Source: a virus (lineage: Duplodnaviria > Heunggongvirae > Uroviricota > Caudoviricetes). From it: DNA of 64,000 bases. This document shows, piece by piece, positions 3-16,380 of this stretch. The notes under the pieces were generated by a model, which was not told the origin of the DNA, did no database searches, and was given only the letters and a program-made list of their open reading frames with translations. Position 1 is the first letter of the stretch, and every line of letters starts with the position of its first letter. Where the stretch lies: the IMG/VR virus record IMGVR_UViG_2541047850_000005, positions 3,554-67,553 of that record, one strand, 5' to 3'. The position numbers and the translations under genes were made by a program.

Positions 3-173
3 ATTAAATTGGACGCTGGCTATACTCAAGCCAACCAGTTGATCAATCTTTGCGAACGTCTTGGACTTGTTGAAAAAGTCAAAGGAGCTGGGATCGCAAA
101 AGCTGGTACTCAGCAATATCGCTTCATTAAAAATGATTTCTACAATTATTTAGCTGATGCTTTCAAAGCGTAA
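3..173 (+). CDS. 3' end of a hypothetical protein gene (5' part outside window)
   Basis: Frame 3 is open from the window edge (IKLDAGYTQANQLINLCERLGLVEKVKGAG..ADAFKA*). TAA at 171-173, followed by hairpin GCGCCCATAGTGGGCGC. Confidence 0.4.
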   Translation: MKLDAGYTQANQLINLCERLGLVEKVKGAGIAKAGTQQYRFIKNDFYNYLADAFKA

Positions 174-220
174 TTAATGGAATCAAGCGCCCATAGTGGG
201 CGCTTTAAAGGAGCTTTAAA

Positions 221-424
221 ATGATCAGCTATGACAAGATCCGCGCGGAATATCGCGCAAAGTATCGCGCTTATAAACTGGAATTAATCGATGATTTGAT
301 CGCGCAACGCGACCAATTAAATTTTACGTTTTCTGATTTGCTTAACAGCAAGCAAGATTGCAAGCGCAAACGTGAATACTTACGTTTAAGCGCATTAATC
401 GGAAAACTTCAAAATTCTATTTAA
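221..424 (+). CDS. hypothetical small protein (67 aa)
   Basis: ORF with SD AAGGAG (ttaAAGGAGctttaaaATG). No family recognised. Confidence 0.55.
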   Translation: MISYDKIRAEYRAKYRAYKLELIDDLIAQRDQLNFTFSDLLNSKQDCKRKREYLRLSALIGKLQNSI

Positions 425-445
425 TTTTTTTTAAGGAGCTTAATC

Positions 446-676
446 ATGTTTGTTCTTATCGCTGGCGTTAACGTCCATAATGAATATTATGTTAATCGCA
501 TCGCTGGGATCGCTGGTTACGCTGGGCGCGCAGTCGAGCTTATAGATGAAACGACGCGCAAAATTGACTTATTGAGCGACCAGGAGCGAAAAAAAGCAGA
601 CGTGAACGACGCTGATATATTTTTAATGTTAAAAGCGTTTGTAGAAATGGGGTTTAAAATCAGTTTACACAAATAA
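446..676 (+). CDS. hypothetical small protein (76 aa)
   Basis: ORF with the same SD context (ttAAGGAGcttaatcATG), followed by two terminators. Confidence 0.55.
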   Translation: MFVLIAGVNVHNEYYVNRIAGIAGYAGRAVELIDETTRKIDLLSDQERKKADVNDADIFLMLKAFVEMGFKISLHK

Positions 677-681
677 AATCG

Positions 682-706
682 AGCGCCCACTATGGGCGCT
701 TTTTTC
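682..706 (+). terminator. rho-independent terminator
   Basis: Hairpin AGCGCCCACTATGGGCGCT followed by TTTTT. Confidence 0.7.
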
Positions 707-726
707 GTTTCCAATACACCTACCAT

Positions 727-751
727 AACGCGCCAATGATGGCGCGTTTTT
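727..751 (+). terminator. second rho-independent terminator
   Basis: Hairpin AACGCGCCAATGATGGCGCGTT followed by a T run. Confidence 0.55.
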
Positions 752-1291
752 ATTGTCTTTAACTCACTCCAACAACATAAAAATAAGCGCCAAAATAACG
801 CCATAGACGCGATTTTATATCCTTGCCAGTACACACCCATTACTTAACACATTAACGCGCTTAAAACGCGTTATATTGCGCTATAGAGTATGGTTAATCA
901 TTGGCTTTTAGTCTTGCTTTATGATCCGCGTTTATTTGTCGGCGCGGATCGGCATTTTGTTTTGTTCCGTATCCGCTCGCGTATTATGTGCGCGTGATTT
1001 TTCACATAATCACACCACTTAATCACGTATGTGATTACGCTACGAAAGAAATCTGGATGTCTCAGGCGACGAAAGTCATAATAATTTTCCCCGCTCACCT
1101 GTCCGACAACCGCTGGTTGGATTCCACCAGCTTCCCGATGTTTTTTCTACATAAAGGCGAATGCAGCCGTTTCCCGAAAAAATCCTGGCCGTTTCCCGTC
1201 GGCTAATGAATACGTTCCTCGCCGTTTCTGAAAATTTCCCTACGGCAGCTGATGGATATAGAGAAAGGGCCGTTTCTGGCCCTCTTCTCAG

Positions 1292-1774
1292 TTACACGCC
1301 ATCAAGGATGTGGATGCGGTTGCTTGCGTATACATTCAGCATAAAGTTAGCGCAAAACAGTTTCCATGTATCAACGCCAGCGGTATACGTAATGTTTTTG
1401 CATTTAATTGCATTGTTGGCGATCCGCATCCCCTGCGATACTGCTTCATCGTCGGAAAATTTGAACGACGATTGAGTTTTAATCCAGACAGAAATCTGCG
1501 TAGCGAACTCAATCAGCTTGGACTGGCAGAATCGCCCGGAGCGCACCGGAAAGACGAACGTTCCGAATCCAGAATTTACCACATACGCTTTCTCAAATAC
1601 CCGCGAGTAACGACGATTGCCAATGATGTCGCGTGCAATAATGCATTTTTCTTGTGCTGACAGTTCTACCGTCTCATTGTCGCGCCATGCACCAAGTACT
1701 CGTTTTTCAATGTCAGAGAACGTTACAGCGATATTGCCATGTGCGGGTGCGTTTACAGTAGCGATAAAATTCAT
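1292..1774 (-). CDS. hypothetical protein (160 aa)
   Basis: ORF with SD AAGGA (gatAAGGAattaatcATG). GATAAT-like -10 and motif-1 palindrome (1794-1809) upstream. Confidence 0.65.
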   Translation of the reverse strand: MNFIATVNAPAHGNIAVTFSDIEKRVLGAWRDNETVELSAQEKCIIARDIIGNRRYSRVFEKAYVVNSGFGTFVFPVRSGRFCQSKLIEFATQISVWIKTQSSFKFSDDEAVSQGMRIANNAIKCKNITYTAGVDTWKLFCANFMLNVYASNRIHILDGV

Positions 1775-1978
1775 GATTAATTCCTTATCGTAAATAACAA
1801 ATTGTTTTCTTGTTGGCGTTAATTATCGTTGTACGAATAAGGCATCAAAGTGGAAAGTTGCGGTAGCCGGACGGGAACAGGTGGGTTTGTCGGTTGCCTG
1901 GAGGTAAGAGGTTGGTGTTTTTAGCCTGCGGGAAACAGGATGGTCATTTAAGGCCACCAGCAGTGGTGGCCTTAATAA

Positions 1979-2122
1979 TTATCGACCGATTACGCTAAGG
2001 ATCTTTTCCTCAACTGATTTGTTGTTGCGACTAAACTGCCTTGCGTATCTGATGACAGAAGAGGCGTTTTGCTTTCTGACTATCTCGGCTCTTTCCTTCA
2101 GGCGTTTCTTGAAATCGCCCAT
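1979..2122 (-). CDS. small basic protein (47 aa), below ORF-track cutoff
   Basis: MGDFKKRLKERAEIVRKQNASSVIRYARQFSRNNKSVEEKILSVIGR*. ATG lies 2 nt after the stop of 2125..2499. Hairpin 1951-1975 follows. Confidence 0.4.
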   Translation of the reverse strand: MGDFKKRLKERAEIVRKQNASSVIRYARQFSRNNKSVEEKILSVIGR

Positions 2123-2124
2123 AT

Positions 2125-2499
2125 TTACCACCAGGCGCAGAAGGTCAGTCTGTTATTGTGAAAGTCGTGGTTCTTAATCAGCTCTTCCACAAGTTTTTTC
2201 AACTCCCCCACGTCATGCCAGTACCCTTCATCGTACTCCTGACTGCCGAAGAAAAAACCTTCACAGGTAGGTAAGTACTCTTCGCAGTTACTTTCGTTCA
2301 TGTGCATCAAATGAGCTTTCAGAGCACAAATGTCATTCATCGTTAATTCTAAAAGCTCACAATTTTTGACTTCACCTACGTTGCGTTCCATCCACCCAAA
2401 GAGAGCATTGAACTTACGGAAGTAAGCAACCTTCTTTCTGGATGCATCGTTATTCAGATCGTTTTTTGGTTGCGTCTCAATGTAGATATCAAGTCCCAT
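2125..2499 (-). CDS. hypothetical protein (124 aa)
   Basis: ORF with SD AAGGAAA. Motif-1 copy at 2558-2574 sits 17 bp upstream of GAAAAT. Confidence 0.65.
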   Translation of the reverse strand: MGLDIYIETQPKNDLNNDASRKKVAYFRKFNALFGWMERNVGEVKNCELLELTMNDICALKAHLMHMNESNCEEYLPTCEGFFFGSQEYDEGYWHDVGELKKLVEELIKNHDFHNNRLTFCAWW

Positions 2500-2617
2500 G
2501 ATGGTTTCCTTATCAAGTTGCTTTCAGTGAAAGCATTTTCACAAATCAGATAAGGCAGAAAACAAATTGTTATCGGGCATAAGAAAATGGCGCGGTTTAC
2601 GCGCCATTCAAAGAGGA

Positions 2618-3025
2618 TTAAGCGAATACGCTTTCAGGGATTAAGGTGTCAGCAGGAATGCCGGAGGTAATGCGCAGACCATACTGACCAATCCAGGTAG
2701 TGTTAGTGTTCAGACTGGAAGCGAATACGGTGTTAACCATATTCATCATGGTTTCAAACACCTCTTTATTCACCTTACGGAAGTAACTTTCAATTTTCAA
2801 CAACAACGGGTCCGTTGCATCAAAAATGGACTGATATTGCGCCTCATATTCCCCGCCTGATGTATCTCCTTTACGCACAATAGTACTTGCCTGAACTTCA
2901 GTTCCAGTTTCGGTGTTGTACGTAACGACGGTGATTTTAGCTACATTCTTACCTTCGGCGCTTTCTGAAGCATAGTAGACATCAACTGTCAGGTTTTCTC
3001 GTTTAACGCTCATATCACTCTCCAT
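2618..3025 (-). CDS. hypothetical protein (135 aa)
   Basis: ORF preceded by TTGTAA-17-TAAAAT, which overlaps motif-2 site 3057-3076. Confidence 0.65.
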   Translation of the reverse strand: MESDMSVKRENLTVDVYYASESAEGKNVAKITVVTYNTETGTEVQASTIVRKGDTSGGEYEAQYQSIFDATDPLLLKIESYFRKVNKEVFETMMNMVNTVFASSLNTNTTWIGQYGLRITSGIPADTLIPESVFA

Positions 3026-3139
3026 AGTGTCTTGGTTATTTTTCTATTTTATAGACATAGGTATGTACTTACAATACAAAAAAAACCCGTAAGGATGGCG
3101 GGGCTGTCGTACTGTCGACTAATTACCACTTGCACATTA

Positions 3140-3451
3140 TCAGGCTATTGCCATCACTGATGCTCTCTGAATCTCTTGCTGGGCCACGCGGTTAACTTCC
3201 ATCAAAGCCAGTTCGAGCTGATGTTCCGGCCACATTCTTTGAAATGCCATCCAGCCTTTTCCACGCTGGCGACGAACATTCATTACATAACGAGTAAAGG
3301 TGTTTTTATCGAAAGACACCGCTGTTTCACGGAACAGACGAATAGAGGTTCCATTGGCAACGATGTCCAGCAAAGTTAATTGAGCAACCAGCGCAGGCTT
3401 CTCTTTTCTCTTCTGGTCTTTGTCCAGACCAAGAACCAATGATTTTTTCAT
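3140..3451 (-). CDS. hypothetical protein (103 aa)
   Basis: ATG 3451 has GGAG 7 nt upstream. The longer track start (3481) would lie inside motif-1 palindrome 3462-3477. Confidence 0.6.
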   Translation of the reverse strand: MKKSLVLGLDKDQKRKEKPALVAQLTLLDIVANGTSIRLFRETAVSFDKNTFTRYVMNVRRQRGKGWMAFQRMWPEHQLELALMEVNRVAQQEIQRASVMAIA

Positions 3452-3604
3452 CACAACTCCGTAAACAACTTGTTTTCTCAATGTCGTAAATAATACCAGT
3501 AAGAAAACGGCTACAAAGCATATTGATCAGGTGCATGAGCGATATGCAGGTTCTTCCCTGCGGCTATAGAGAAATTAAGCCAGCAATGCTGGCTTTGGTT
3601 GGGA

Positions 3605-3934
3605 TTACGCGAATACCTCAAGAAACTCCTGAACGTCCCAATGCTGGACGAGGTGAAGATAGACCTTAGAAATCACGTCATTTTCACTATCGCATGTGAA
3701 GTAGTACTTCTGGCTGCGGTTGTATGTGTCCACACAAAATTCGCTCATATCCATAAAGTCAGCATCTTCACCCATGTCGCAAATCATCAAAGCAGGTGCG
3801 TCATCACGAGTCATCAGCTCCAGCACCCATATTGAATTAATCAGAGTGGAAGACCAACCTTCCAGCTCATAAAACTGGTCAAACTCTTTTTGAGTCAATT
3901 TCTTAATTTGGTTGATGTCGATATTTGCAAACAT
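3605..3934 (-). CDS. hypothetical acidic protein (109 aa)
   Basis: ATG 3934 has AAGGA 8 nt upstream. Earlier in-frame ATGs fall in or after motif-1 palindrome 3946-3961. Confidence 0.6.
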   Translation of the reverse strand: MFANIDINQIKKLTQKEFDQFYELEGWSSTLINSIWVLELMTRDDAPALMICDMGEDADFMDMSEFCVDTYNRSQKYYFTCDSENDVISKVYLHLVQHWDVQEFLEVFA

Positions 3935-4073
3935 AAAGCAATCCTTAAACATGTTGTTTTCTGAATTACGTAAACAATACCAGTAAGAAAACGGCCACAA
4001 AGTATATCGTTACGGTGCTGCGCTGCCCCGGAGGTTAATAGCGACAAAAGCCACCGTGCTGGTGGCCTCACTC

Positions 4074-4292
4074 TTAATCTTGGTCGTCCGGGAACTCGCT
4101 GTGTACCGCGCCAACCAGCTCCCGCTTTTCATCTTCACTCAGCAGGTGCCAGATATCCTTCCCTTTGGGCGATTCCCCTTCTGCCGGGACGAACGACCAC
4201 AACTTGCGGTACAACTCCGGCCCCACTGCATCCAGACACTCAGCCAGGGAATCCACGCCCCACACCTCAACCGTCACAGGCATCTTAATCAT
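4074..4292 (-). CDS. hypothetical acidic protein (72 aa)
   Basis: ORF with SD GAGGA. Hairpin GCCACCGTGCTGGTGGC lies downstream. Confidence 0.55.
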   Translation of the reverse strand: MIKMPVTVEVWGVDSLAECLDAVGPELYRKLWSFVPAEGESPKGKDIWHLLSEDEKRELVGAVHSEFPDDQD

Positions 4293-4319
4293 CTCTTCAT
4301 CCTCACTTCGTTTCTATAA

Positions 4320-5760
4320 CGTCTAAATATGCTGTTTACTTGTTGGTGTTATTATCGCAATAAGACAAAGGCGAAAAAGGATTTTATGTCGGGAAAGCCA
4401 GGCTGGGCAGTGAATATCCGGGAACGACACGAGAGCCAGTATTTACGATATTCTGCTCTACGCACGCCGCGGGGCTGGTGGGCAGAATAATCCTCTCCCC
4501 GAAAACCTACTGAAATCGATTGTGACCCGCTGGCTGTCTGGCACAATTACGCTGTATCTGGCATTCAGAGGGAATCCAGCGGTAAGCAAGTCAGCCTGCA
4601 CGTGAGCGTCTCTCTTCTTCCCGCACATTACAGGTGGGTAGCTGCAACTCTCTCTCGCTATACCGGTACGCCGCCGTTCCTGAACCGGCATCGAGCCTTT
4701 TCCCGAAATCCACACAGGCAACTCGACCGTTTCCCTGAAAATCCCCAGCCGTTTCTGTAGCGTATGCAACCTTTTCTCTGTATGGACCGAAGGCTGACCG
4801 TAGGGGTGTTACGGGGGATGATGGTAAGATGTTGAATAAATACGAAAAAGGAGGCGACACCCCTCCTTCCCTCCCCACTTATACATACCTTGCTTCTTCG
4901 CTATACATGTTGTGTTTTCTTCGTGTTTTATCTGTCTCAACCTCTCTATAGGCGTTAATGCTTACTCCTTCCAGAACGTTCTATACGGCGACTATTTCTG
5001 TTGGTGAATTGGGTGTGTTGTTTTCTCTGTCGATGTATGTGGTTTCGTTCGTTTTGCGGTGGTTCTTCTATGGGGTGTTCTCGTCGTTTTGGTGATTGTT
5101 CTTCTCCGTGTATGGAGTAATGGCAGGTGGGCGATTCCTTTCGTTATTGTGTTTGAGTTGTTTGTCTGGAGTGTGTGAAGGGCTTTTGTAGTTATTCGTG
5201 TATTGGGTAATGGCGTTTCCCGTGATTGTTATGTTTCGTGTCTTTTGGGATTGAGAGAAACCTTGCGGTTACAGGCTTCGTTGGGGTTTCAGCGGTTCAG
5301 GTGTTTCTTCGCTGTTTGGGTAATGGCGTGTCGTGGGTATCGCGCGTATGAATGTTTTCGGATTGCCTGTGAAAGTTAGGTTGGTTATCCGGTAGCCTGG
5401 GAAGAAGAGGTGGGGTCTTTTCGGTAGCCTGCCATAAAGAGGTTGGTTGTTTTGGGTAATGGCATATGTGTTATTTGGTTGTTTTGTTATGCCTGAAAAT
5501 AAGTTGTTTATATGGTTGTGTAACGCAACGGGAGCGATTTTGAGCGTGTGTTTTTGTTGGTAGTGTGTTGAGTCGTCTGTGGTGAAAATTGGACGCTGTG
5601 GAGCTGTCTGCTGCGTAGGTTTACGGGTATAAGAAGTGATGTGTGAAAACGTCAATTTTTTAGACCAAATCGGGAGAAAGCGTTGATGTTTCGTTGATCT
5701 GTTATTTAGTTGTTTTCTTATTGGTATAAACAACTGTAACCTATTGATATTTAAGGATGT
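4320..5760. other. ORF-poor region; its right 0.9 kb is strongly G+T-rich on the + strand and carries dispersed short direct repeats
   Basis: Only low-complexity or overlapping ORFs. TGGGTAATGGC-type repeat at about 5113, 5203, 5316 and 5452. CGGTAGCCTG occurs twice at about 5390 and 5423. Confidence 0.5.
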
Positions 5761-5861
5761 GATTGCAGGCATGGAAGGGGAGTAGTGGCGATCAACGGAT
5801 TCTTATAGAAAAGAATCAAATTGTGACCGCCATTATCAACGGTTTGAATATGTTTGCAGAT

Positions 5862-6161
5862 TTACCAGTTCCAGCACTCAAGCCCTTCAACGACCGGCGC
5901 ACCACAATCAAAATGTACAGAGTCAAAGCCTACATCAAGTACTTTCTGAATGTTAGCAATCGCGCCTTCGGATATACCATATCGACGCAAGTCGTCTTTC
6001 CAGACATCATCCTGTAACCCGGCGTGGACAATACAACCGCCATCAATTTGTGAAACCCAATCCAGCTCATTGCTTGCGATCATGAATCGGCGAGCATCTT
6101 CCTCTGATGTATGAGATGAACTGATCAATGCCACCTGGTAGGCTTGGGTAATGTTCAACAT
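5862..6161 (-). CDS. hypothetical protein (99 aa)
   Basis: ATG 6161 has GGAG 8 nt upstream (track start 6170 is a GTG). Two motif-1 palindromes upstream (6174, 6224). Confidence 0.6.
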   Translation of the reverse strand: MLNITQAYQVALISSSHTSEEDARRFMIASNELDWVSQIDGGCIVHAGLQDDVWKDDLRRYGISEGAIANIQKVLDVGFDSVHFDCGAPVVEGLECWNW

Positions 6162-6274
6162 TTCAACCACTCCAAAACAAGTTGTTTTCTTATGTGGCTT
6201 ATTATCTCTAACAACAAAAGGCAGAAAACAAATTGTTTTAGGTACTGTGTAAATCAGAAGGGATTGTGTCTATA

Positions 6275-6303
6275 TGAAAATGCCCGGCGTGTTGCCGGGC
6301 ATT
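6275..6303 (-). terminator. metG terminator
   Basis: Hairpin AATGCCCGGC..GCCGGGCATT followed by TTTTC on the minus strand. Confidence 0.75.
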
Positions 6304-6322
6304 GCGAAGAGAGGTTGCTTAA

Positions 6323-8356
6323 TTACTTAACCTGGTGACCAGGTTTAGCACCAGCATCCGGGCTTAACAGGAAGATATCTTTCCCACCAGGACCAGCAGC
6401 CATCACCATGCCTTCTGAGATACCGAAACGCATTTTACGCGGAGCCAGGTTAGCCACCATAATGGTGTGACGACCAATCAGTGCCTGTGGGTCTGGATAA
6501 GCAGAACGAATGCCGGAGAAGACATTACGCTTTTCCCCACCGAGATCCAGTGTCAGACGCAGCAGTTTGTCAGAGCCTTCAACAAACTCCGCGTTTTCAA
6601 TCAGCGCCACACGCAGGTCAACTTTGGCGAAGTCGTCAAAGGTGATGGTTTCCTGAATCGGGTCGTCAGCCAGTGGGCCAGTTACCGGTGCGGCTGTGGC
6701 TTTCACTTCTTCTTTGGATGCTTCCACCAGTGCTTCCACCTGTTTCATATCGATGCGGTTATACAGCGCCTTGAACGGATTCACTTTGTGGCCCAGCAGC
6801 GGTTGCTGGATACCATCCCAGGTCAGTTCTGTATTGAGGAATGCTTCTGCGCGCTCGGTCAGTTTCGGCAGTACCGGTTTCAGGTAAGTCATCAGCACGC
6901 GGAACAGGTTAATGCCCATAGAGCAAATCGCCTGCAGATCGGCATCGCGACCTTCCTGCTTCGCCACCACCCACGGAGCCTGTTCATCGACATAGCGGTT
7001 AGCCAGGTCAGCCAGTGCCATGATTTCACGGATAGCTTTACCAAATTCGCGGCTTTCCCATGCTTCGCCAATCACTTCAGCGGCATCAGTAAAGGTTTTG
7101 TACAGTTGCGGGTCAGCCAGTTCGCTTGCCAGCACGCCGTCAAAACGCTTGTTGATAAAGCCTGCATTACGGGAGGCCAGGTTAACCACTTTGTTCACGA
7201 TATCGGCATTCACTCGCTGAACGAAATCTTCCAGGTTGAGATCGATATCATCAATGCGCGAAGAGAGTTTCGCAGTGTAGTAGTAACGCAGGCTGTCGGC
7301 GTCAAAATGATTCAGCCAGGTGCTGGCTTTAATGAACGTGCCGCGAGACTTGGACATCTTCGCACCGTTCACCGTCACATAGCCATGAACAAACAGGTTG
7401 GTCGGCTTGCGGAAGTTGCTGCCTTCCAGCATGGCAGGCCAGAACAGGCTGTGGAAGTAAACGATATCTTTACCGATGAAGTGGTACAGCTCGGCGGTGG
7501 AGTCTTTCTTCCAGTATTCATCGAAGCTGGAGGTGTCGCCGCGTTTGTCGCACAGATTCTTGAAGGAACCCATGTAGCCAATCGGCGCGTCCAGCCAGAC
7601 GTAGAAATATTTGCCCGGCGCGTTCGGAATTTCAAAACCGAAATAAGGGGCGTCGCGGGAGATATCCCACTGTTGCAGGCCAGATTCAAACCACTCCTGC
7701 ATTTTATTTGCCACCTGCTCCTGCAACGCACCGCTGCGGGTCCATGCCTGCAGCATTTCGCTGAAAGAAGGCAGATCAAAGAAGAAGTGTTCGGAATCAC
7801 GCATTACCGGCGTAGCACCAGAAACTACCGATTTCGGCTCGATCAGTTCAGTCGGGCTGTAAGTCGCGCCGCAGACTTCACAGTTATCGCCGTATTGATC
7901 TGGCGCTTTACATTTAGGGCAGGTGCCTTTTACAAAACGGTCCGGCAGGAACATGCCTTTTTCCGGGTCGTATAACTGAGAGATGGTGCGGTTTTTAATA
8001 AAACCGTTCTCTTTCAGGCGAGTATAAATAAGCTCGGACAACTGACGGTTCTCTTCGCTGTGCGTCGAGTGATAGTTGTCATAGCTGATGTTAAAGCCTG
8101 CAAAATCAGTCTGGTGTTCCTGACTCATTTCGCCAATCATCTGTTCCGGTGTGATACCAAGCTGCTGTGCTTTCAGCATGATCGGTGTGCCGTGGGCATC
8201 GTCGGCACAGATGAAATTAACCTCGTGGCCGCGCATTCGCTGGTAACGAACCCAGACATCAGCCTGGATGTGCTCCAGCATATGGCCGAGGTGGATTGAG
8301 CCGTTAGCGTACGGCAGCGCGCACGTCACCAGAATTTTCTTCGCGACTTGGGTCAT
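6323..8356 (-). CDS. metG: methionyl-tRNA synthetase
   Basis: 677 aa from [30 protein letters not shown] motif present, plus a C-terminal tRNA-binding domain. Near-identical to E. coli MetG as recalled. Confidence 0.97.
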
Positions 8357-8513
8357 AGTAGGCATTACTTCTTTGTAGTGAAAAGGGGCTTGATAGTAAC
8401 AAAATGGCCTTATGTCTGCCATGTGATAACAGCATTTCTCATAAATGATTAAATGCCGTAGCTGGAGTACACTACAAGGCGACAATTGCGCAAATTAAAA
8501 TAAAGGAGACGGG

Positions 8514-9614
8514 ATGAGCGAGTCCAAATCGCCGGATGCCCTGAGAGCAATGGTAGCCGGTACGCTGGCTAATTTTCAGCACCCAACCCTGAAACACAAC
8601 CTGACTACGCTTAAAGCGTTACACCATGTTGCGTTGATGGATGACACACTGCATGTCGAACTAATCATGCCTTTCGTGTGGAATAAGCCTTTTGAAGACC
8701 TGAAAGAGCAATGTAGTGGTGATCTGCTCCGTATCACTGGCGCAAAGGCTATCGACTGGAAGCTGTCGTACAACATTGCCACGCTTAAGCGCGTCAAAAA
8801 CCAACCAGGCATTAATGGCGTTAAGAACATTATCGCCGTCAGCTCAGGCAAGGGCGGCGTTGGTAAATCCTCCACGGCGGTAAACCTGGCACTGGCGTTG
8901 GCTGCTGAAGGTGCGAAAGTTGGTATTTTGGATGCCGATATCTACGGGCCATCAATTCCAACCATGCTTGGCGCGGAAAACCAACGTCCAACCTCACCGG
9001 ACGGTACTCACATGGCACCGATTATGTCTCATGGACTGGCAACCAATTCAATTGGTTATCTGGTAACTGACGACAATGCGATGGTGTGGCGTGGTCCGAT
9101 GGCGAGCAAGGCGTTAATGCAGATGTTGCAGGAAACTCTATGGCCTGATCTGGACTATCTCGTTCTCGATATGCCGCCGGGTACTGGTGATATTCAGCTG
9201 ACGCTGGCGCAGAACATTCCTGTAACTGGTGCTGTTGTGGTAACTACGCCGCAAGATATCGCGCTGATCGATGCGAAGAAAGGCATTGTGATGTTCGAAA
9301 AAGTCGAAGTGCCGGTACTGGGTATCGTCGAAAACATGAGTGTGCATATTTGCAGTAACTGCGGTCATCACGAGCCAATTTTTGGCACCGGTGGCGCACA
9401 GAAACTGGCCGAGAAATACAACACGCAGTTGTTAGGCCAAATGCCACTTCATATCTCTCTTCGTGAAGATCTGGATAACGGAACACCAACCGTTATTAGT
9501 CGTCCAGATAGCGAATTTACGGCTATTTATCGTGACCTTGCAGATCGCGTTGCTGCCCAAATGTATTGGCAAGGTGAAGTAATACCTGGCGAAATCGCAT
9601 TCCGCGCAGTGTGA
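8514..9614 (+). CDS. apbC: Fe-S cluster carrier ATPase ApbC/Mrp
   Basis: P-loop SSGKGGVGKSS and CSNCGHH motif. Divergent from metG as in E. coli. SD AAGGAG. Confidence 0.95.
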   Translation: MSESKSPDALRAMVAGTLANFQHPTLKHNLTTLKALHHVALMDDTLHVELIMPFVWNKPFEDLKEQCSGDLLRITGAKAIDWKLSYNIATLKRVKNQPGINGVKNIIAVSSGKGGVGKSSTAVNLALALAAEGAKVGILDADIYGPSIPTMLGAENQRPTSPDGTHMAPIMSHGLATNSIGYLVTDDNAMVWRGPMASKALMQMLQETLWPDLDYLVLDMPPGTGDIQLTLAQNIPVTGAVVVTTPQDIALIDAKKGIVMFEKVEVPVLGIVENMSVHICSNCGHHEPIFGTGGAQKLAEKYNTQLLGQMPLHISLREDLDNGTPTVISRPDSEFTAIYRDLADRVAAQMYWQGEVIPGEIAFRAV

Positions 9615-9615
9615 T

Positions 9616-9640
9616 AAAAAGGTGGTGCAATGCACCACCT
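9616..9640. terminator. bidirectional terminator shared by apbC and the humD-like gene
   Basis: AAAAA-GGTGGTGCAATGCACCACC hairpin between two convergent stop codons. Confidence 0.7.
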
Positions 9641-9651
9641 AAACAGTTCTC

Positions 9652-10041
9652 CTACATCACAGGACAATCATCAAACTCGCCACTTCTTGCGTCGTTGATA
9701 ATGTGAGTGATCACACCAAACACGGCATTGCTGCCCGTGCATCCATCATCATCCTTTGGCAATGCTTCCTTCTTACCAGTTCTTAAATCCTCCAGATGCT
9801 GACGTGGATACTTCCGGTATCTTTTTACGCGATATTCCCCATCCAGAGCACATACAAGAAGAGATCCATCAACAGGAGTGAGTGAGGAATCGACCACCAG
9901 CAATGCACCCTGCAATATTCCCTCACGATGATGGCTATCAGCTGCCCTCAAGAAGTAGGTCGCTGAAGGATGTCTAATTATCTGCTGATCAAGAGAAATA
10001 CGGCTCTCAGCATAATCCGCCGCAGGAGAGGGGTACCCCAT
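9652..10041 (-). CDS. humD: UmuD'-like protein encoded in pre-processed form (P1 HumD-like)
   Basis: MGYPSPAADYAE.. aligns with UmuD from the Cys24/Gly25 cleavage site onward. The ADSH Ser and VKRYRK Lys are retained. Confidence 0.85.
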   Translation of the reverse strand: MGYPSPAADYAESRISLDQQIIRHPSATYFLRAADSHHREGILQGALLVVDSSLTPVDGSLLVCALDGEYRVKRYRKYPRQHLEDLRTGKKEALPKDDDGCTGSNAVFGVITHIINDARSGEFDDCPVM

Positions 10042-10059
10042 AGCGTTTTACCTCAAAAA

Positions 10060-10079
10060 TACTGTTTATCTGTACAGTA
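10060..10079. promoter_or_regulatory. LexA (SOS) box upstream of the humD-like gene
   Basis: TACTGTTTATCTGTACAGTA equals CTGT-N8-ACAG, 19 bp upstream of the ATG. Confidence 0.8.
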
Positions 10080-10198
10080 TACATTAAAGAAGCACCTTTG
10101 GTGCATTAGAGAAATGCAAAACGATAATAGAGGCTAAATCGAGGTAGAAAACACATTGTTTAAGGCCACTAATTGTGGCCTTAATGGAGAGGGGATGC

Positions 10199-10723
10199 TT
10201 ATTGGCTATGGCTAAAAATCAAATTAGACACTTCATGTGGTTGTAGCTCGTCAAGATCCGGTGCCACAAAACCTTTTCCGAAAGACTTCACAAGTGATTC
10301 ACCAGCCGCATCATTGTCACCTATTACACGAAAGTCATACGGCAGCATTGCCAGTTGACGACGTAATCCTGCTGAGAAAGTCGAACCTAACAGCGCCCAC
10401 GAATTTCCGCCCGCGTTGTGCACTGCTGCACTTTTAAAAATCGACTCAGTTATCCATATCGGTCCATCTTTTAAAGGAAGATAGGTTCCCCATAGTAGCT
10501 GTCTGCCGTGCGCTCGTGTGAAATACCGGGCCATCTTCGGATTGCTGTGCTGCTTAGGAGCGCCTGGTCTGTATGTCTGATACCCGGCCAACATCCCATC
10601 AAACCTGTATAGAGGGAATGTAACAACTCCTTCGCTTTCATCGATCCACTGTCTATATGGGTGTATATCATGGCGGTAGTTACGAGTCAGCAAATGAGCT
10701 TCCAGCTTTCCAAATTTGGTCAT
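10199..10723 (-). CDS. Toprim-domain protein (primase-core-like)
   Basis: IWITESIFKSAAV (Toprim Glu) and VIGDNDAAG (DxD). ATG 10723 lies 13 nt after the upstream stop and has a GAGG SD. Confidence 0.55.
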   Translation of the reverse strand: MTKFGKLEAHLLTRNYRHDIHPYRQWIDESEGVVTFPLYRFDGMLAGYQTYRPGAPKQHSNPKMARYFTRAHGRQLLWGTYLPLKDGPIWITESIFKSAAVHNAGGNSWALLGSTFSAGLRRQLAMLPYDFRVIGDNDAAGESLVKSFGKGFVAPDLDELQPHEVSNLIFSHSQ

Positions 10724-10736
10724 AACTTCGCATCCC

Positions 10737-11591
10737 TCATAACACTTCCCATTTATCACCATATTTCTCCATAGCTCTTAGCCAGTAAACATGGCCACTA
10801 GGCATAGTGATGTGAGGCTCGCCAAACTCTTCTCCATGCACATCAAAGATGTCCCCAACAGAGAATTGGGGGATTTCTGTGCCGTTTTCACCTATATGCG
10901 TAATTCGTATACGTTTCGGTTGAGATTCGCCCCCTTTGAGCGAGTTGTTCACGGCTCTTGCAATCTTCTCCCGCAATTGCTGCGTTCCGTGATACGAAAC
11001 CGCAATATCCCGCAACTCGTTCACCAGTTCTCGAATTTGGTGATCTTTAAGCTCATTATTTGGGTGATGGGCAACAACTCTGGTTAATTCACCCTTGTCT
11101 TTTGCTCTTACGTATGCAGCTCTTGTGCATTCGACCCATGTATTACCGCCTACATTAACTTCGTAGATTAGGCTGGACTTATCTGTTAATTCGGCACAAA
11201 TACGGGCCGTGGTCTGACAACTAGAGCATTCGCAGTGATCACGGAAACCGTGATCTACTGGCTTCGGTTTCACATCATCAACTTTTTCTACCCTATTGGA
11301 ATTTAAATACTTCGAAGCCTTGCTATGCCAATCGCTGGTTTTAGGATCTTGTCCATCCATCAAACGCCAGGCTTCAGCGATTAACTCATAACTAGTGACT
11401 GTAGCTTCCTGCGCATCACCAATAAGTCGTGTAATCTCTCTTTCAAGCCGACCGCCTAATTCCGTTTTAGTGCAATGTTCTGACCAATCGCCAGCCTCAA
11501 GAAGCGCGAGAATGTTTAAAATATCGTCCAATAGAACGGTAGTATTTTCGACTTCCTTCTGAAGCTCTCCGGCTGCTGATTTATGCGTCAT
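10737..11591 (-). CDS. hypothetical protein (284 aa)
   Basis: Long ORF with Cys cluster HCECSSC, start overlapping the upstream stop. Confidence 0.65.
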   Translation of the reverse strand: MTHKSAAGELQKEVENTTVLLDDILNILALLEAGDWSEHCTKTELGGRLEREITRLIGDAQEATVTSYELIAEAWRLMDGQDPKTSDWHSKASKYLNSNRVEKVDDVKPKPVDHGFRDHCECSSCQTTARICAELTDKSSLIYEVNVGGNTWVECTRAAYVRAKDKGELTRVVAHHPNNELKDHQIRELVNELRDIAVSYHGTQQLREKIARAVNNSLKGGESQPKRIRITHIGENGTEIPQFSVGDIFDVHGEEFGEPHITMPSGHVYWLRAMEKYGDKWEVL

Positions 11592-11857
11592 TCGTCATCC
11601 TCATCCGACTCATCCTCATCACAGGTTGAGAGTAGTGGGTTAGTCATTCGTCCTACTTGAGTGGCGTAGCCACGCCGACAGAGATTGCGCAGCACACTGT
11701 ATATTTCGAACATCTCGGTTCGTTCCTCACCAACATCAAGCTCAGATGCTATAGCGTGGCATTCAGTCGCGAGAGCCGATATTTTCTGAAATAACTCTGC
11801 TTTATTCACTCTTCGACTCCTGCGGAGGTTCTGGTAGCGGCATCCAGTGTGTGACAT
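11588..11857 (-). CDS. hypothetical protein with acidic tail
   Basis: ORF ends CDEDESDEDDE. A GTG at 11809 with GGAG 7 nt upstream is a likely alternative start. Confidence 0.5.
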   Translation of the reverse strand: MSHTGCRYQNLRRSRRVNKAELFQKISALATECHAIASELDVGEERTEMFEIYSVLRNLCRRGYATQVGRMTNPLLSTCDEDESDEDDE

Positions 11858-12410
11858 TGCTAATCAGACCATATTCATTCGTTTGAGGATGGTTGCCGTT
11901 ATCGTCTCCGTATTTAAGACTCTCCATAAAGCCATAATGCCTATCACCATTAACGCTCACAAAGCCGTAATAAGCAGGTATAACGCCGATCTCACACGTA
12001 ACCAGCAAAGGAAAACTAGTTCTCCAATTTAGCTCGCCGATTACAGGCATCTGCTCACTACAGCTTATCCAACCATCAGGAGTAACCGGATAGTTGCGCA
12101 TTGCGACCTTAAATGCCTCATAGAAGCAACCTTTCAGATTATTGAACTGACGCCCGTTCAGAGGGCCATGTTCTGTCAACATGTTGTGTAATTTCCATGC
12201 CGCGTCGTTAACTTCGTTGGATGATCTGGGAGGCAACTTGCAAGTTTGGCTTACAGGTTCTGCACTATCAGCTTCGCGCCGCTTCTGTAGCTCTGCTGCC
12301 ATCGCTCTCACGACTTCAACTGGTGCCCTTGCAGCAAACTCTATGTTGGTGATCAGCTCATTAAGATATTGCTCGCCTGGATACTGTTTCTTATCGGTTA
12401 TAGTAGTCAT
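11802..12410 (-). CDS. DUF551-like phage protein (202 aa)
   Basis: C-terminal ..NVTHWMPLPEPPQ signature. ATG 12410 preceded by GGAGAGTGAT. Confidence 0.65.
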   Translation of the reverse strand: MTTITDKKQYPGEQYLNELITNIEFAARAPVEVVRAMAAELQKRREADSAEPVSQTCKLPPRSSNEVNDAAWKLHNMLTEHGPLNGRQFNNLKGCFYEAFKVAMRNYPVTPDGWISCSEQMPVIGELNWRTSFPLLVTCEIGVIPAYYGFVSVNGDRHYGFMESLKYGDDNGNHPQTNEYGLISNVTHWMPLPEPPQESKSE

Positions 12411-12411
12411 A

Positions 12412-12849
12412 TCACTCTCCTTTTCCCTGAAGCATGGCAGCGTGGCAGGCATCCTCTACGCCCTTAACTGCATCTGCGCAGTAGTTATAGCGATTGCATT
12501 CCACTAACTTCTGCTTGAGATTTTCAATTGCTTGCGCGACATCAGCCTGTATTACGGGAACGAGGGGAGCGGCGTATACTTCAATTGTCCCATTATCAAT
12601 AGGCCACTCCCCATCCTTGATGTAGTCACTTGTGCCGTCAACTTGCTGTTCTGCAATGTGGAATGCACCTATTGGTTTTGTCTCAAGTGAGGCCAGTGCA
12701 ATTCGTGCCAGTTTTAGATCTCGTTCGACCATCTCAATAACAACTTTGCAGTCCGCACCTTCTTTACTAACACGTCCTTTCAAGTCTTCCAGATAACTAA
12801 CGCTTTCGCGTGCATGGGAGATTAACTGTTCTTTGGTTAAGGTGGTCAT
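12412..12849 (-). CDS. hypothetical protein (145 aa)
   Basis: ORF in a tightly coupled minus-strand chain. Confidence 0.6.
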   Translation of the reverse strand: MTTLTKEQLISHARESVSYLEDLKGRVSKEGADCKVVIEMVERDLKLARIALASLETKPIGAFHIAEQQVDGTSDYIKDGEWPIDNGTIEVYAAPLVPVIQADVAQAIENLKQKLVECNRYNYCADAVKGVEDACHAAMLQGKGE

Positions 12850-13034
12850 TAGGCAGCTCTCTCAACAACAAGCAATTCGTCGTAGTCATAATCAGTTTCG
12901 GAACCATCCGTACCGAACAGAGTCACTTTGTCATCTTCCATCCAAAAAGATTTAACCGCACATTGTTGACCTTTAGATGTTATGAGCACATCACCAGGGA
13001 TTACATCTTCAGCGCGAACTTCTAGTGTTCTCAT
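12849..13034 (-). CDS. hypothetical protein (61 aa)
   Basis: ORF whose start and stop overlap both neighbours. Confidence 0.5.
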   Translation of the reverse strand: MRTLEVRAEDVIPGDVLITSKGQQCAVKSFWMEDDKVTLFGTDGSETDYDYDELLVVERAA

Positions 13035-13561
13035 CGTGCTGACCCCTCTTTGGTTAAAATGCCTGCTGCAATGCTGTTTATGATGCTGTCAGTGCATGGA
13101 GTAGAAAGCTGGGCATCTCCAGCAATTTTCATGACCTCAACATCCGCATATCGAATACCGAGGTGTATCAGACCGGCTATACCTGACTTAAGTCGAACAT
13201 TTTCCATAAACAGATCTTTTTCCCGCTGTTTAGCGGCTTCCAACTCCATCGACAATTTTTCCAACTGCTCTTTATGCTTCTTGTATTCCTGATACGCGTG
13301 CCAAGACTGACCTTTGCGCACACTATCAGTGATATCAGCAACCTGCTCCGGTGTTAGCGTGGTCAGTGGCTGTGCTGGAAAAATCATCACCTTCCCGGCA
13401 TCCCAATCAAAACCCGCCTGAATTGACTGAACCTCAACTGATGGTGTTGAACCGATGCGACCAGGCGAATGAACAACGATCGTTACATCCATATCGCGAC
13501 GATGGCTGTGGTTGTTGGACAAAATACGATTCACCAACTCAGAAAATTTGGAAAATTTCAT
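13031..13561 (-). CDS. hypothetical coiled-coil protein (176 aa)
   Basis: ATG 13561 overlaps the upstream stop (ATGA). Confidence 0.6.
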
Positions 13562-13881
13562 GCTGATCCCTCTTTTTCTCCCCGGATAATTCTGTTGCAC
13601 ACATCCACACACTCGTCGCAGATGAAAACGGCGTCCCCAGCAATTAACTTTTTGACGGCGTACTGGGATTTGTTGCAGAAGCTGCAACAAAGTGTTCGCC
13701 TGACTGATAAGGATGGAGCGCCAGATGTCAGCCGCTCCATATCGTTCTTGCGACGCAATATCACACGGCTGAACTCAACCAGTTTCTCCGGGGATATCTC
13801 CTCCTCCGTAGCAAGCGCCTCTAATCGTTCGAGTATGTGGAAGGCTTTTTTCTGGGTAATTGCAGAATGCGATGTGGTCAT
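13558..13881 (-). CDS. stand-alone ClpX-type C4 zinc-finger protein (107 aa)
   Basis: [35 protein letters not shown] matches the ClpX N-terminal domain (CSFCGKSQHEVRKLIAG..ICDECVDLCNDII). No AAA+ module. Confidence 0.75.
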
Positions 13882-13882
13882 C

Positions 13883-14413
13883 TCACTCTCCTTTGATGCG
13901 AATGCCAGCGGCGCGGGAATCATTCCATCGCTTTACTTCTTCACGAATTACGTCAATGCATTCTTTCGAATCCATTAGGTAATCTTCATCAAAAAGACGT
14001 TCCTGTTCGTTTTCTATCGCAACAATGATTGCTTCAACTAACTTTTGTGCCTGAGAATCACTTTCTAACTCTGCTATGCGCTTACTTCCATCCGAGATAA
14101 CGCCCTCGTAATACTCACGCTGCTCGTTGAGTTTTGATTTTGCCAACTCCAGTTGTTTTGTTAGTTCCGCAATACGGCAAACATCGTTGATACGCGTTTC
14201 CTCTAATGCGTTGATCTCATCCAGTAGTGCCAGCACGGTTTCTGGTCCGGCCAGAAATTTGAAGGCGTTGAGGGCATCAATATCAACACCGCTATCTTTA
14301 AGTTCCTGTTCACTTAACAAGTCATCATCAGCTGGCAACATTAACAGGCGTTCCATTGCTGGAATTGCACGTTCCGCCACCTCACGCAGTGCCTGGTAAT
14401 TAATTTCGCTCAC
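13883..14413 (-). CDS. hypothetical coiled-coil protein (176 aa)
   Basis: GTG start with AGGAGG 6 nt upstream. Confidence 0.6.
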
Positions 14414-14654
14414 TGGCTGCCTCCTGCTTTTCTGCCTTCAACACCATGCGAGAACCATCATCCAGCTCCCACACTATCTCACCACCTTCAGCCATGACCA
14501 GTTGCCACACCAATTGAGCAGCCTCATTGGTAACATCACGACCTGGATCATTGCCAACGCGCATACGTCCACCTTCAACATCGCGCATTTTTGCCAGCAT
14601 GATAGTTTTTGATAGCGGTGAAAAACCAAGCTGTAGTCGTGCTGAATTACTCAC
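14400..14654 (-). CDS. hypothetical protein (84 aa)
   Basis: GTG start overlapping the upstream stop (GTGA). GGAGG SD. Confidence 0.55.
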   Translation of the reverse strand: MSNSARLQLGFSPLSKTIMLAKMRDVEGGRMRVGNDPGRDVTNEAAQLVWQLVMAEGGEIVWELDDGSRMVLKAEKQEAASERN

Positions 14655-15157
14655 TGGTTGCCTCCTTTGCGAAGCTGGTCGGCGAACAAACGTACACCAG
14701 ACGCTTCACTGCGTAGAAACTTAACGGCATCATCAAAACCACCTCGTTCTGCGTCGTCTGCTCCGTTGTCGAGGTTATCTGCGTACATCTCTACCCCCTG
14801 CGCCCGTACTTCAGCCAGAAAAGCATCGGTGGCTGGAGTCTCCGTTAATTCGCTAACCCAATTATCTCCGTGTTCCTCGGCACGCATCGCATCGAATGCT
14901 CGCTCAGATTCTTTCAGGGCTGCATTCTCCGCCGCTAATGCGTCTCTCTGCGCCCGCAACTTCTCAATTTCGGCAGCCATGTAGTAACCAACCATAGCGA
15001 AGACGGCAAAAGAGTTGTCTGCCTCATCAGGCGACACTGAGGCCATTAGCAGACCATCGTAATAATCGTGACTCCCATTGGTGATCGCCACCGCATAGGA
15101 GTCGTGGTTCTCACGCTTGTGAATGAGAACTACGGGGTTTTCGATTTTGTTACTCAT
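14651..15157 (-). CDS. hypothetical protein (168 aa)
   Basis: First gene after the promoter with motif-1 (15230). Conserved leader AGAGAAAAACACATG. Confidence 0.65.
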   Translation of the reverse strand: MSNKIENPVVLIHKRENHDSYAVAITNGSHDYYDGLLMASVSPDEADNSFAVFAMVGYYMAAEIEKLRAQRDALAAENAALKESERAFDAMRAEEHGDNWVSELTETPATDAFLAEVRAQGVEMYADNLDNGADDAERGGFDDAVKFLRSEASGVRLFADQLRKGGNQ

Positions 15158-15295
15158 GTGTTTTTCTCTTCTTTGCTGTTACATAAGCACTACCAAGTGC
15201 TGGTTTATTTTCACAAATAAGAAAATGTAGAAAACAATTTATTTAAGGCCACAACTTATGGCCTTTATTTATTCATGCCGAAGGATTTGTAGCGT

Positions 15296-15676
15296 CTAAT
15301 TGCCGTATAAAATGGGGTGAGGTGCTTGCCAGTAGGCTCCACCGGTCCATGTGAACCCCATGCGAATAAGAGTGTTTATTGCGGCTTTGGTAGACTCCGA
15401 TTCGACACTGGCTTTACGAAACTCTTGAACCTCTTTCGCCAACCTGTATGTAATTGTGCAGGGGACGATTGCAGCCCAGCCTTTCTCATGACTGTTAATG
15501 ACCATCTGGATGTGACCATCCAGAATAGGTTGATTAGACATGTTATTGAAAATGTCTGCCTGTTTTTGAATGTGAAGAAAAAGCCTTGCCAGCTCCATTT
15601 GCTCACTACGAGACAAGGGATTATCAAGAGGGCTTTTTGCAAAAGCGGCTATACGCTGTGCGTCAATGCCAAACAT
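15296..15676 (-). CDS. hypothetical protein (126 aa)
   Basis: ORF whose start abuts the upstream stop. Confidence 0.6.
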   Translation of the reverse strand: MFGIDAQRIAAFAKSPLDNPLSRSEQMELARLFLHIQKQADIFNNMSNQPILDGHIQMVINSHEKGWAAIVPCTITYRLAKEVQEFRKASVESESTKAAINTLIRMGFTWTGGAYWQAPHPILYGN

Positions 15677-16380
15677 CAGCGCACCTCACCATCTTTATGG
15701 CTGGAGTTAACTTCCGCCATTAAATGTCTGACGTAATCGACAAGAGAGCCACCTGGTGGAATCTGGCATTCCTCAACTAACTGGAAGTAGATATCCGCAG
15801 CATTACGTGTATTGCTACCCGCGCATATTCTTTCTTCCCGAAGTGCATGAAGCTCGTTGATCAAACGGTCACACTCTCCGTTACGCTGATCCACAACAGC
15901 CTCAAGTTCTGCGACGCGTTCACCTGGCGTCTTACCTTCTTCGCGTTGGATGGTAACGACGAAATCGCCAATTGCAGGGACGTTGTAATCCAGCTCAAGG
16001 TAGTTTTTGGCACCGCTGCGGACGAACTCACCCGCGAACATGGTGGCGAACATCTCAGAGGCCATTGTGCTGTTGAAAAGTGACTCCAGATCTAACGGAG
16101 TCCCGGCAGCCAGAGCCTCTTTTGCTGTATCCATTGCATCCATGAACCGATCAAACTCATTAGCGCGCTTTTCCAGGTCTTTCCATTGCTCGCTCCAACG
16201 TTTGGCAATGAAGTCTATGAATGTTTTCGCGGATTCATCAAAATCCCCCTCAAACTTAACGATGCCTTTATCAATAATGATCTGGCCTACCGCATCCTCT
16301 GCATAACCTTTCAATGTAAACTTGAAAGGAAAATCAGAATGGCCTGTGACGTTAAAATGCTCTAACTGGAGGTTGTTCAT
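15676..16380 (-). CDS. hypothetical protein (234 aa)
   Basis: ORF preceded by motif-2 site 16423-16442 and leader AGAGAAAAACATATG. Confidence 0.65.
   Translation of the reverse strand: MNNLQLEHFNVTGHSDFPFKFTLKGYAEDAVGQIIIDKGIVKFEGDFDESAKTFIDFIAKRWSEQWKDLEKRANEFDRFMDAMDTAKEALAAGTPLDLESLFNSTMASEMFATMFAGEFVRSGAKNYLELDYNVPAIGDFVVTIQREEGKTPGERVAELEAVVDQRNGECDRLINELHALREERICAGSNTRNAADIYFQLVEECQIPPGGSLVDYVRHLMAEVNSSHKDGEVR

Follow-up and report, generated by a model that had tools for sequence, protein, structure and literature searches.

How does a pair of bacterial housekeeping genes—metG for methionyl-tRNA synthetase (MetRS) and apbC (mrp) for an iron–sulphur (Fe-S) cluster carrier—come to reside in a viral genome, and why is it kept there? 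The question is raised by positions 6239–9651 of a 64,000-nucleotide stretch of the IMG/VR record IMGVR_UViG_2541047850_000005 (positions 3,554 to 67,553; Caudoviricetes), which is referred to as the window in the following. A preliminary description of this DNA had left two readings of the locus: the capture of the pair by a mobile replicon of the SSU5/pHCM2 kind, giving a second metG, or the invasion of a chromosomal locus by related elements from either flank. With a probability of roughly 80%, we read the segment as a host-derived cargo cassette that is fixed in the Escherichia/Shigella branch of SSU5-like phage-plasmids, that was captured long ago, whose metG is converted by host alleles, and that would provide a beneficial extra supply of both gene products. 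The cassette consists of the following parts:

6239..6322, minus strand: left non-coding end of the cassette, with the metG terminator hairpin at 6279-6303
6323..8356, minus strand: metG, methionine-tRNA ligase of 677 amino acids, intact (NCBIfam NF001100)
8357..8513, no strand: divergent metG/apbC intergenic region, with putative promoters
8514..9614, plus strand: apbC (mrp), Fe-S cluster carrier P-loop nucleoside triphosphatase of 366 amino acids, intact (NCBIfam NF008669)
9615..9651, no strand: right non-coding end of the cassette, with a hairpin at 9620-9640

A phage-plasmid and not an invaded chromosome

The window aligns collinearly to phage-plasmids that are complete and circular, and it therefore belongs to an SSU5-like phage-plasmid rather than to a chromosome. 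Its first 20 kb (1–20000) match Escherichia phage PhiR41_1, whose circular genome has 107,998 bp and was deposited as a phage genome record, at 99.6% identity and, at 97.6%, p09EL50, a plasmid of E. coli O104:H4. The latter stays collinear with the window over 58 kb, with 87% of the window aligned at 96–99.8% identity. The stretch common to both comprises rnhA, folA, thyA, nrdAB, RepB, and dnaE; p09EL50 also encodes terminase, portal, capsid, and tail/tail fibre proteins next to RepB and ParB. The same metG–apbC segment is found at 96.9% identity on pLF82 of strain LF82, which is the SSU5-like phage-plasmid Cyrano, is present at 5.5 copies per chromosome, and yields virions upon induction by ciprofloxacin (PMC9928086). 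The replicon of the window belongs to the SSU5/pLF82 group and is a temperate plasmid-prophage of ~108 kb. Siphovirus structural genes, RepB/ParB, nrdAB, thyA, folA, and dnaE are common to the SSU5/pHCM2/pLF82 (Cyrano) type and the window's element, while SSU5 and its Klebsiella relatives differ from this element in having no metG–apbC; in SSU5, neither metG nor apbC nor humD was found.

A chromosomal metG–apbC pair is present in 5,426 of 5,426 complete E. coli genomes. These copies are 90–91% identical to the window and span only 6322–9610 of it, i.e., the coding limits. In K-12, the pair is located between yehE and yehF (yehD-yehE-mrp-metG-yehF), and neither of these neighbors is found in the window. 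An additional full-length copy at 95–99% identity is borne by 214 of the genomes. A plasmid-allele-specific probe (window 8380–8850) hits 218 genomes, with 219 plasmid places and merely two chromosomal ones, which are weak ~80% matches to chromosomal apbC. The backbone gene of a DUF4942 methyltransferase occurs in 251 genomes and, hence, ~85% of the E. coli SSU5-like elements carry the cassette. Since every carrier cell has its own chromosomal copy, lysogens hold extra copies of both genes.

These data also decide on the second of the two initial readings. A chromosomal metG–apbC locus with related mobile elements invading from both sides would be in line with the element-type repeats and the small minus-strand genes on both flanks. 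It is nevertheless practically untenable, as the whole window follows circular phage-plasmids, as chromosomal homology ends exactly at the coding ends with yehE and yehF not there, as a separate and ~90% identical copy resides in all E. coli genomes, and as the plasmid-type allele sits on plasmids in 218 of them. Two of the checks proposed at the outset—counting the copies and comparing the junctions with chromosomes and SSU5-like plasmids—both speak for the capture and the resulting second metG: a separate chromosomal pair is always present, and plasmid homology covers the flanks where chromosomal homology has ended.

Two candidates for further captures were rejected. A Klebsiella 256-kb "plasmid" with metG–apbC shows full chromosomal synteny (btsSR, yohO) and is no second independent capture, and the matches at 82–84% in Salmonella and Klebsiella are chromosome-like. 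IMG/VR yielded copies that were either of the plasmid allele (ApbC 100%) or of the chromosomal type, and no more divergent viral versions. The E. albertii plasmid p3RM15115 (CP043243.1, 62 kb) is of the same replicon type and keeps the cassette, has no humD, and shows GNAT as the next annotated gene to the right; it is probably a deleted phage-plasmid derivative that kept metG–apbC.

Two intact housekeeping genes

Both genes of the divergent pair, which the preliminary description had called normal, are full length and score above the NCBIfam equivalog cut-offs. MetG reaches 1019.6 bits with NF001100 (cut-off 587), covering residues 4–677 of 677, and bears the HLGH and KMSKS motifs as well as four zinc-knuckle cysteines (CPKC...CEVC). 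Among the Pfam families, Anticodon_3 is matched and tRNA_bind marks a C-terminal tRNA-binding domain at residues 581–674. The protein is 98.8% identical to that of K-12 (~94% at the nucleotide level), and, judging from this identity, the plasmid enzyme should be active in aminoacylation. ApbC reaches 759.3 bits with NF008669 (cut-off 348), covering residues 2–366, and carries a deviant Walker A motif (GKGGVGKS) and a CSNC motif of the cluster-binding CXXC type. MinD models score far under their cut-offs on this protein, so that the "MinD" annotation in Cyrano is a misnomer. ApbC is 94.1% identical to its K-12 counterpart and shows an N-terminal three-residue deletion together with a cluster of substitutions. 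The greater divergence of ApbC, including its N-terminus, which the preliminary description had pointed out, is thus real and is the key clue.

Discordant histories of metG and apbC

Ten plasmid and phage copies of the cassette are 94–98.6% identical among themselves. Toward K-12, the two genes differ strongly in their synonymous divergence (dS): it amounts to 0.27 for metG, which equals that between K-12 and Escherichia sp. E1V33, and to 1.47 for apbC, which is as great as that to Citrobacter. In segments of 100 bp, identity to K-12 is 88–100% in metG, ~53% in the intergenic region, and 74–83% at the ends of apbC. Within the intergenic region, just the 47 nucleotides beside metG are Escherichia-like, and the remainder is plasmid-specific and near-invariant among plasmids (nucleotide diversity 0.004).

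Neighbor-joining trees reflect the same discordance. For metG, plasmid copies group with E. coli and E1V33 at a bootstrap value of 100, and plasmid monophyly is recovered in 46% of the replicates. For apbC, a plasmid-only clade (bootstrap 100) sits on a long branch as the sister of Escherichia (91%). The distance of plasmid apbC to K-12 (0.203) hardly differs from that to Citrobacter werkmanii (0.206), and the distances to eight outgroups are consistently greater for plasmid apbC than for K-12 apbC. These distances imply a plasmid apbC branch that is ~1.7-fold faster and a split that is older than the divergence of E. coli and E1V33. The donor comparison rests on the matches listed, which include two Escherichia-type genomes, a K-12-like one and E1V33; no genus among those compared is close to plasmid apbC. 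Most simply, the contiguous pair would have been captured once, long ago, from a chromosome related to Escherichia, after which apbC and the control region diverged in isolation and metG did not.

Recurrent gene conversion of metG

On a background of ~90% identity, metG carries tracts that are identical to K-12 and that differ between plasmids. In S. sonnei plasmids, such a tract extends over 344 bp (7587–7930; permutation p<1e-4), in pEc2-51408 over 237 bp (p=0.0014), and in pZ1323HEC0016-2 over 191 bp (p=0.0006). Over 20 kb, 76 sites separate the window from PhiR41_1; 62 of these fall in the 2-kb metG, one in the remainder of the cassette, and 13 outside of it (binomial P=4e-48). Where the two differ, 34 sites have the K-12 base in PhiR41_1 and the plasmid-majority base in the window, and, therefore, PhiR41_1 is the recent recipient and the window keeps the conservative allele.

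On a broader level, 25 full cassette copies (23 haplotypes) were compared: nucleotide diversity is 0.035 in metG, 0.019 in apbC, where the conserved middle holds most of it, and 0.004 in the intergenic region. Values for segments of 100 bp increase with the similarity of the segment to the chromosomal copy (rho 0.44, p=0.01) and stay at or below 0.013 where identity is 83% or less. Homologous recombination with resident chromosomal copies predicts just such a relation, and the pattern indicates recurrent gene conversion of plasmid metG from host chromosomes. Hereby, the resident chromosomal metG repeatedly overwrites the plasmid copy patch by patch through homologous recombination; conversion would be restricted to stretches with at least ~85% identity to the host copy. 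This overwriting makes metG both Escherichia-like in appearance and the most variable part among otherwise near-identical genomes; apbC and the intergenic region evolve in isolation.

Could the mosaic stem from assembly or polishing of mixed chromosomal and plasmid reads? Such mixing does happen, as is clearly displayed by the "chromosome" record BHUCD01. For metG in general, however, this origin is very unlikely. The 344-bp tract recurs without any difference in three S. sonnei plasmids from Australia and the UK that were sequenced independently and is, hence, no assembly artefact; PhiR41_1 was deposited as a phage genome, and the tract imported into it departs from K-12, with 20 private sites; and the tracts are long, contiguous, and lineage-specific. 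In BHUCD01 itself (NZ_CM183442.1, 2192929–2196203), which gives the best match to the 3' end of the window's metG (98.8%), a plasmid-to-chromosome conversion was considered and set aside as an artefact. The record has the length of K-12, and its plasmid-type and K-12-type alleles alternate exactly with the mappability of the plasmid copy to K-12. The locus is probably a reference-guided consensus that was contaminated by reads of the multicopy phage-plasmid.

A further alternative sees the cassette as a homology handle or allele shuttle. In its wider form, metG would be exchanged with host chromosomes in both directions, and the phage-plasmid would serve as a transmissible multicopy shuttle or reservoir for alleles of an essential translation gene—a proposal that we regard as doubtful.

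Two database records stand apart. The draft contig IMGVR_UViG_2740892421_000017 (13,004 bp) runs from a chromosomal yehF flank into a hybrid metG with the crossover inside the gene, continues with plasmid-type apbC–humD and ~6 kb of accessory genes up to the equivalent of window position 16041, and then joins without homology to an internal point of a 3'-truncated chromosomal metG, behind which mrp and yehE are located. Either a phage-plasmid fragment did insert into a chromosome here, or the contig is chimeric. CP170191.1, labeled as the chromosome of Enterobacter hormaechei strain B56, carries a metG–apbC that is 100.0% identical to E. coli K-12; it is probably mislabeled or an E. coli genome.

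Selection, expression, and proposed role

Both reading frames are intact in 25 of 25 copies, and full-length cassette genes are annotated in ~200 PLSDB records. Across ~30 IMG/VR contigs and most RefSeq plasmids, ApbC is one and the same protein (100% identity). Among plasmids, apbC has a ratio of nonsynonymous to synonymous divergence (dN/dS) of 0.010 at a dS of 0.14, with little chromosomal import over most of its length: plasmid apbC is under strong purifying selection. For metG, dN/dS is 0.018, with part of the variation being imported. The residues in which MetG departs from K-12 are mostly Citrobacter/Salmonella states, i.e., ancestral enterobacterial ones, and none of them is in a catalytic motif.

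Transcription was reported for an LF82 lysogen grown in LB. Hereby, normalized expression is ~92 for the apbC homolog CYRAN_99, ~16 for metG (CYRAN_100), and ~148 for humD, with a floor of ~5; the apbC homolog exceeds the background 9-fold. There, the apbC of Cyrano is counted among the morons and called "septum site-determining protein" (PMC9928086).

We propose that the cassette is kept as an element-controlled extra supply of MetRS and Fe-S carrier, which might be useful to the element or to the lysogen. To this role in dosage or as a back-up—by analogy to the element's own nrdAB, thyA, folA, and dnaE—we would give even odds.

Several points weigh against the overall reading of an old, converted, and beneficial cassette. 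SSU5 and Klebsiella relatives do without it. Transcription of metG in the LB-grown LF82 lysogen is weak (PMC9928086), and the low dN/dS of metG could partly reflect imported chromosomal alleles that were already purified. A scan for the sigma-70 consensus found no strong site in the metG–apbC intergenic region or at the repeated motif-1 of the flanks (see below), the totals not exceeding those of shuffled sequences; the promoters of the intergenic region are therefore only putative. The window's own metG shows no individually significant tract (longest run 109 bp, p=0.15), which makes the mosaic a property of the family. The apbC might also have been captured recently from a chromosome of an Escherichia-related species outside the sample, such as E. 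albertii, E. fergusonii, or E. marmotae.

Some of these points would also suit a cassette that is a neutral hitch-hiker, a frozen accident without function: Salmonella and Klebsiella relatives lack it, metG transcription in the lysogen is low, and the host already owns both genes. Against this, all 25 copies as well as the ~200 PLSDB entries are full length, apbC is constrained over a dS of 0.14 without chromosomal import over most of the gene, ApbC does not vary over the ~30 contigs, and the cassette is kept in ~85% of the E. coli elements although its neighbors vary. Hence, we consider neutrality unlikely.

Where a mobile element carries a second aminoacyl-tRNA synthetase (aaRS) gene, this gene classically confers resistance, as plasmid-borne mupA/ileS2 does toward mupirocin. 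The cassette could, in analogy, provide immunity or resistance toward an agent that targets MetRS, or it could counter a toxin or defense system acting on the charging of Met-tRNA. Besides the general pattern, this idea draws on the DUF1778-GNAT toxin–antitoxin pair carried by the element, which is of a type that acetylates aminoacyl-tRNA, and on a second der gene in a sub-lineage (see below), by which translation genes recur as cargo. It is quite unlikely nonetheless. At 98.8% identity, MetG is close to the sensitive host enzyme, and its differences—non-catalytic and mostly ancestral—argue against a resistance-type enzyme; an inhibitor-resistant MetRS allele was set aside on this sequence basis, with the MupA/MupB models scoring ~33 bits at a cut-off of 1900. 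Plasmid MetG also freely takes up tracts of host alleles, so that protection would be possible only through dosage. In the literature found, no MetRS-targeting agent is linked to the element.

The cargo slot and its surroundings

The surroundings of the cassette comprise the following features:

5862..6170, minus strand: left neighbor gene, DUF5983 C-terminal domain protein (open reading frame; annotated in PhiR41_1; Pfam PF19419, E 6.9e-11)
6171-6190, minus strand: motif-1 copy with 3 mismatches, directly upstream of the ribosome-binding site of the left neighbor gene
6223-6242, plus strand: motif-1 copy with 0 mismatches, left boundary of the cargo slot (pTB212 homology ends at ~6238-6240)
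9652..10041, minus strand: humD, UmuD-like S24 peptidase, right neighbor (NCBIfam NF051876, 215.5 bits, cut-off 120)
10060..10079, minus strand: near-perfect LexA-box-like palindrome TACTGTACAGATAAACAGTA upstream of humD, read from the sequence
10146..10185, plus strand: motif-1 and GGCCAC..GTGGCC terminator hairpin, intact unit (of the version truncated at 6242); family D6, folding free energy (ΔG) -15.6 kcal/mol
15229..15268, plus strand: second intact motif-1 and hairpin unit, ΔG -12.1 kcal/mol
2557-2576, 3459-3478, 3943-3962, and 19771-19790: further motif-1 sites

The limits of the cassette follow from plasmid pTB212 (NZ_CP033252.1). Its homology to the window includes the DUF5983 gene, which belongs to the backbone/accessory region, stops at ~6238, and resumes at ~9650 at the humD stop codon (9652-9654; 37 bp past apbC), with other cargo in between—a 0.93-kb DUF4145 gene with its own hairpin (4141–5073 of the compared stretch). 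These breakpoints fix the limits within 2–3 bp of the coordinates first proposed and mark the site as a cargo slot; the DUF4145 gene at the same place points to a cargo hotspot. The leftmost piece of the cassette, 6239–6322, finds no counterpart in pTB212 or in E. coli chromosomes.

The captured unit is a contiguous chromosomal piece that comprises both genes, the divergent control region between them, and the hairpins at the ends. It occupies a variable slot in the accessory region, which is transcribed leftward; the slot is bounded by a motif-1 unit, putatively regulatory, on one side and by the stop codon of humD on the other. In agreement with the preliminary description, the small genes are exclusively on the minus strand in the open reading frames of both sides, the humD stop lies 37 bp after apbC, and motif-1 is found on both flanks at the four sites noticed there. 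The hairpin at 6279–6303 (ΔG -19.1 kcal/mol, z-score -4.9) has an A-run/hairpin/U-run layout with its U-tract on the metG (minus) strand. The hairpin at 9620–9640 (ΔG -15.8, z-score -4.3) has a U-tract on the minus strand only and therefore fits a humD terminator, not an apbC terminator; as such, it should keep humD transcription out of the cassette. The humD homolog CYRAN_98 ranges from ~7 to ~12 (log2) across LF82 transcriptome conditions and is strongly induced in some (PMC9928086).

Motif-1 (AGAAAACAAATTGTTTTAGG, at most three mismatches) occurs at eight sites where 0.01 are expected, all of them intergenic and between 2.5 and 20 kb. It is partly palindromic (AAAACAA-TTGTTTT), is often adjacent to a start codon or to a terminator hairpin, and probably acts as an operator or promoter. 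In the two intact units, it occupies 10146–10165 (+) and 15229–15248 (+), and the GGCCAC..GTGGCC hairpins at 10161–10185 and 15245–15268 form one repeat family. Units of motif-1 and hairpin are common to SSU5 and the window; the genes between them are not. The left break of the cassette is located at the hairpin-side edge of motif-1, where intact units run on into the GGCCAC hairpin, and the cargo of pTB212 begins there, too. It is plausible that the metG segment replaced the hairpin next to motif-1.

A second site of variation is seen at the other end. E. coli plasmid pZ1323HEC0016-2 (NZ_CP148383.1) carries a second der directly after apbC, where the window has humD (8124–9596 of the compared stretch). 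der encodes an essential ribosome-assembly GTPase. The plasmid version occurs at 36 plasmid places and, as is the case for metG, shares ~91% identity with the der on the chromosomes of all 5,426 E. coli genomes.

Relation to known systems

In the literature on SSU5/pHCM2/pLF82-type phage-plasmids and on aaRS, no paper was found that discusses the metG–apbC cassette, although its genes are annotated in public records. The discordant origins of metG and apbC and the ongoing plasmid–chromosome conversion appear to be undescribed so far.

Virus-encoded aaRS are one parallel: MetRS is one of the four aaRS of mimivirus, and huge phages carry aaRS genes. They share with the window's metG the presence of a cellular-type MetRS in a viral genome, presumably for translation. 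Unlike them, this metG is near-identical to that of the host, was captured with a neighbor and a control region, resides on a temperate plasmid-prophage, and still recombines. With MupA/IleS2, it shares the status of a second aaRS on a mobile replicon beside the chromosomal gene. Resistance aaRS are, however, strongly diverged from the sensitive housekeeping enzyme, and the 98.8% identity to K-12 sets the window's MetRS apart from them.

The cassette also resembles prophage morons or auxiliary metabolic genes: it is an insert with its own terminators and a non-phage control region, is absent from close relatives, and has an apbC that is transcribed in the lysogen. Along these lines, the cassette is not in SSU5, is replaced by the DUF4145 gene in pTB212, has hairpins at both ends, and bears a transcribed apbC homolog; independence from the phage is only partial for metG given its low expression. 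In contrast to typical morons, the cargo is a core housekeeping pair that duplicates host functions, one of them essential, and brings no new trait.

In architecture, the motif-1 and hairpin units resemble the PeSL (promoter-early stem-loop) cassettes of T4, which are regulatory and flank shuffled genes: the motif-1 units are short and recur between the genes of a hyper-variable, co-directional early region. They are better conserved between SSU5 and the element than the genes that they flank. Nevertheless, the PeSL sequence is unrelated to motif-1, whose role as promoter or operator is putative.

A parallel for the conversion is found in tufA/tufB of Salmonella, which evolve in concert through gene conversion. 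In both cases, two copies of a translation gene are homogenized patchily by homologous recombination. The two metG copies, however, do not share a replicon: one is chromosomal, and the other is carried by a transmissible multicopy phage-plasmid, so that the plasmid copy samples the alleles of successive hosts. The native chromosomal metG–mrp locus, finally, shows the yehD-yehE-mrp-metG-yehF order, whereas the neighbors in the window are the DUF5983 gene and humD.

Implications

Phage-plasmids of the SSU5/pLF82 type are common in E. coli and Shigella, being present in ~4–5% of complete genomes and bearing CTX-M-15 in some cases. If our reading of the cassette holds, most of them carry a selected second copy of an essential aaRS and of an Fe-S carrier, and such elements bring along cellular functions not just in DNA metabolism but also in translation and cofactor delivery. 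The discordant histories of metG and apbC would then be a natural experiment on the identity threshold for gene conversion between plasmid and chromosome. If exchange is indeed two-way, plasmid metG might also be a spare that is able to replace a damaged chromosomal copy, and the second der of the sub-lineage would point to a general "translation insurance" class of cargo. On the practical side, metG assemblies from read mapping or reference guidance may turn chimeric in carriers—one public "chromosome" appears to be so—and mapping-based metG allele calls in lysogens should be treated with care. The cargo is unusual and has a clear evolutionary dynamic, yet it is not a new kind of system.

Further observations in the window

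A scan of positions 1–20000 with Rfam matched no family. To the left of the cassette, the region ~4880–5460 is gene-poor and lies in a part with strong strand asymmetry (GC skew +0.33 and AT skew -0.29 for 5001–6000). It contains repeats—a 32-bp unit in 2.2 copies at 5390–5458, and families related to 1887–1950 and 5102–5332—and is unannotated in p09EL50 and pTB212. To the right, 33 bp within the DUF4942 methyltransferase gene (17420–17452) match an annotated CRISPR (clustered regularly interspaced short palindromic repeats) locus in the chromosome of E. coli AST85 (NZ_AP043644.1) at 100%, which suggests a spacer against this element.

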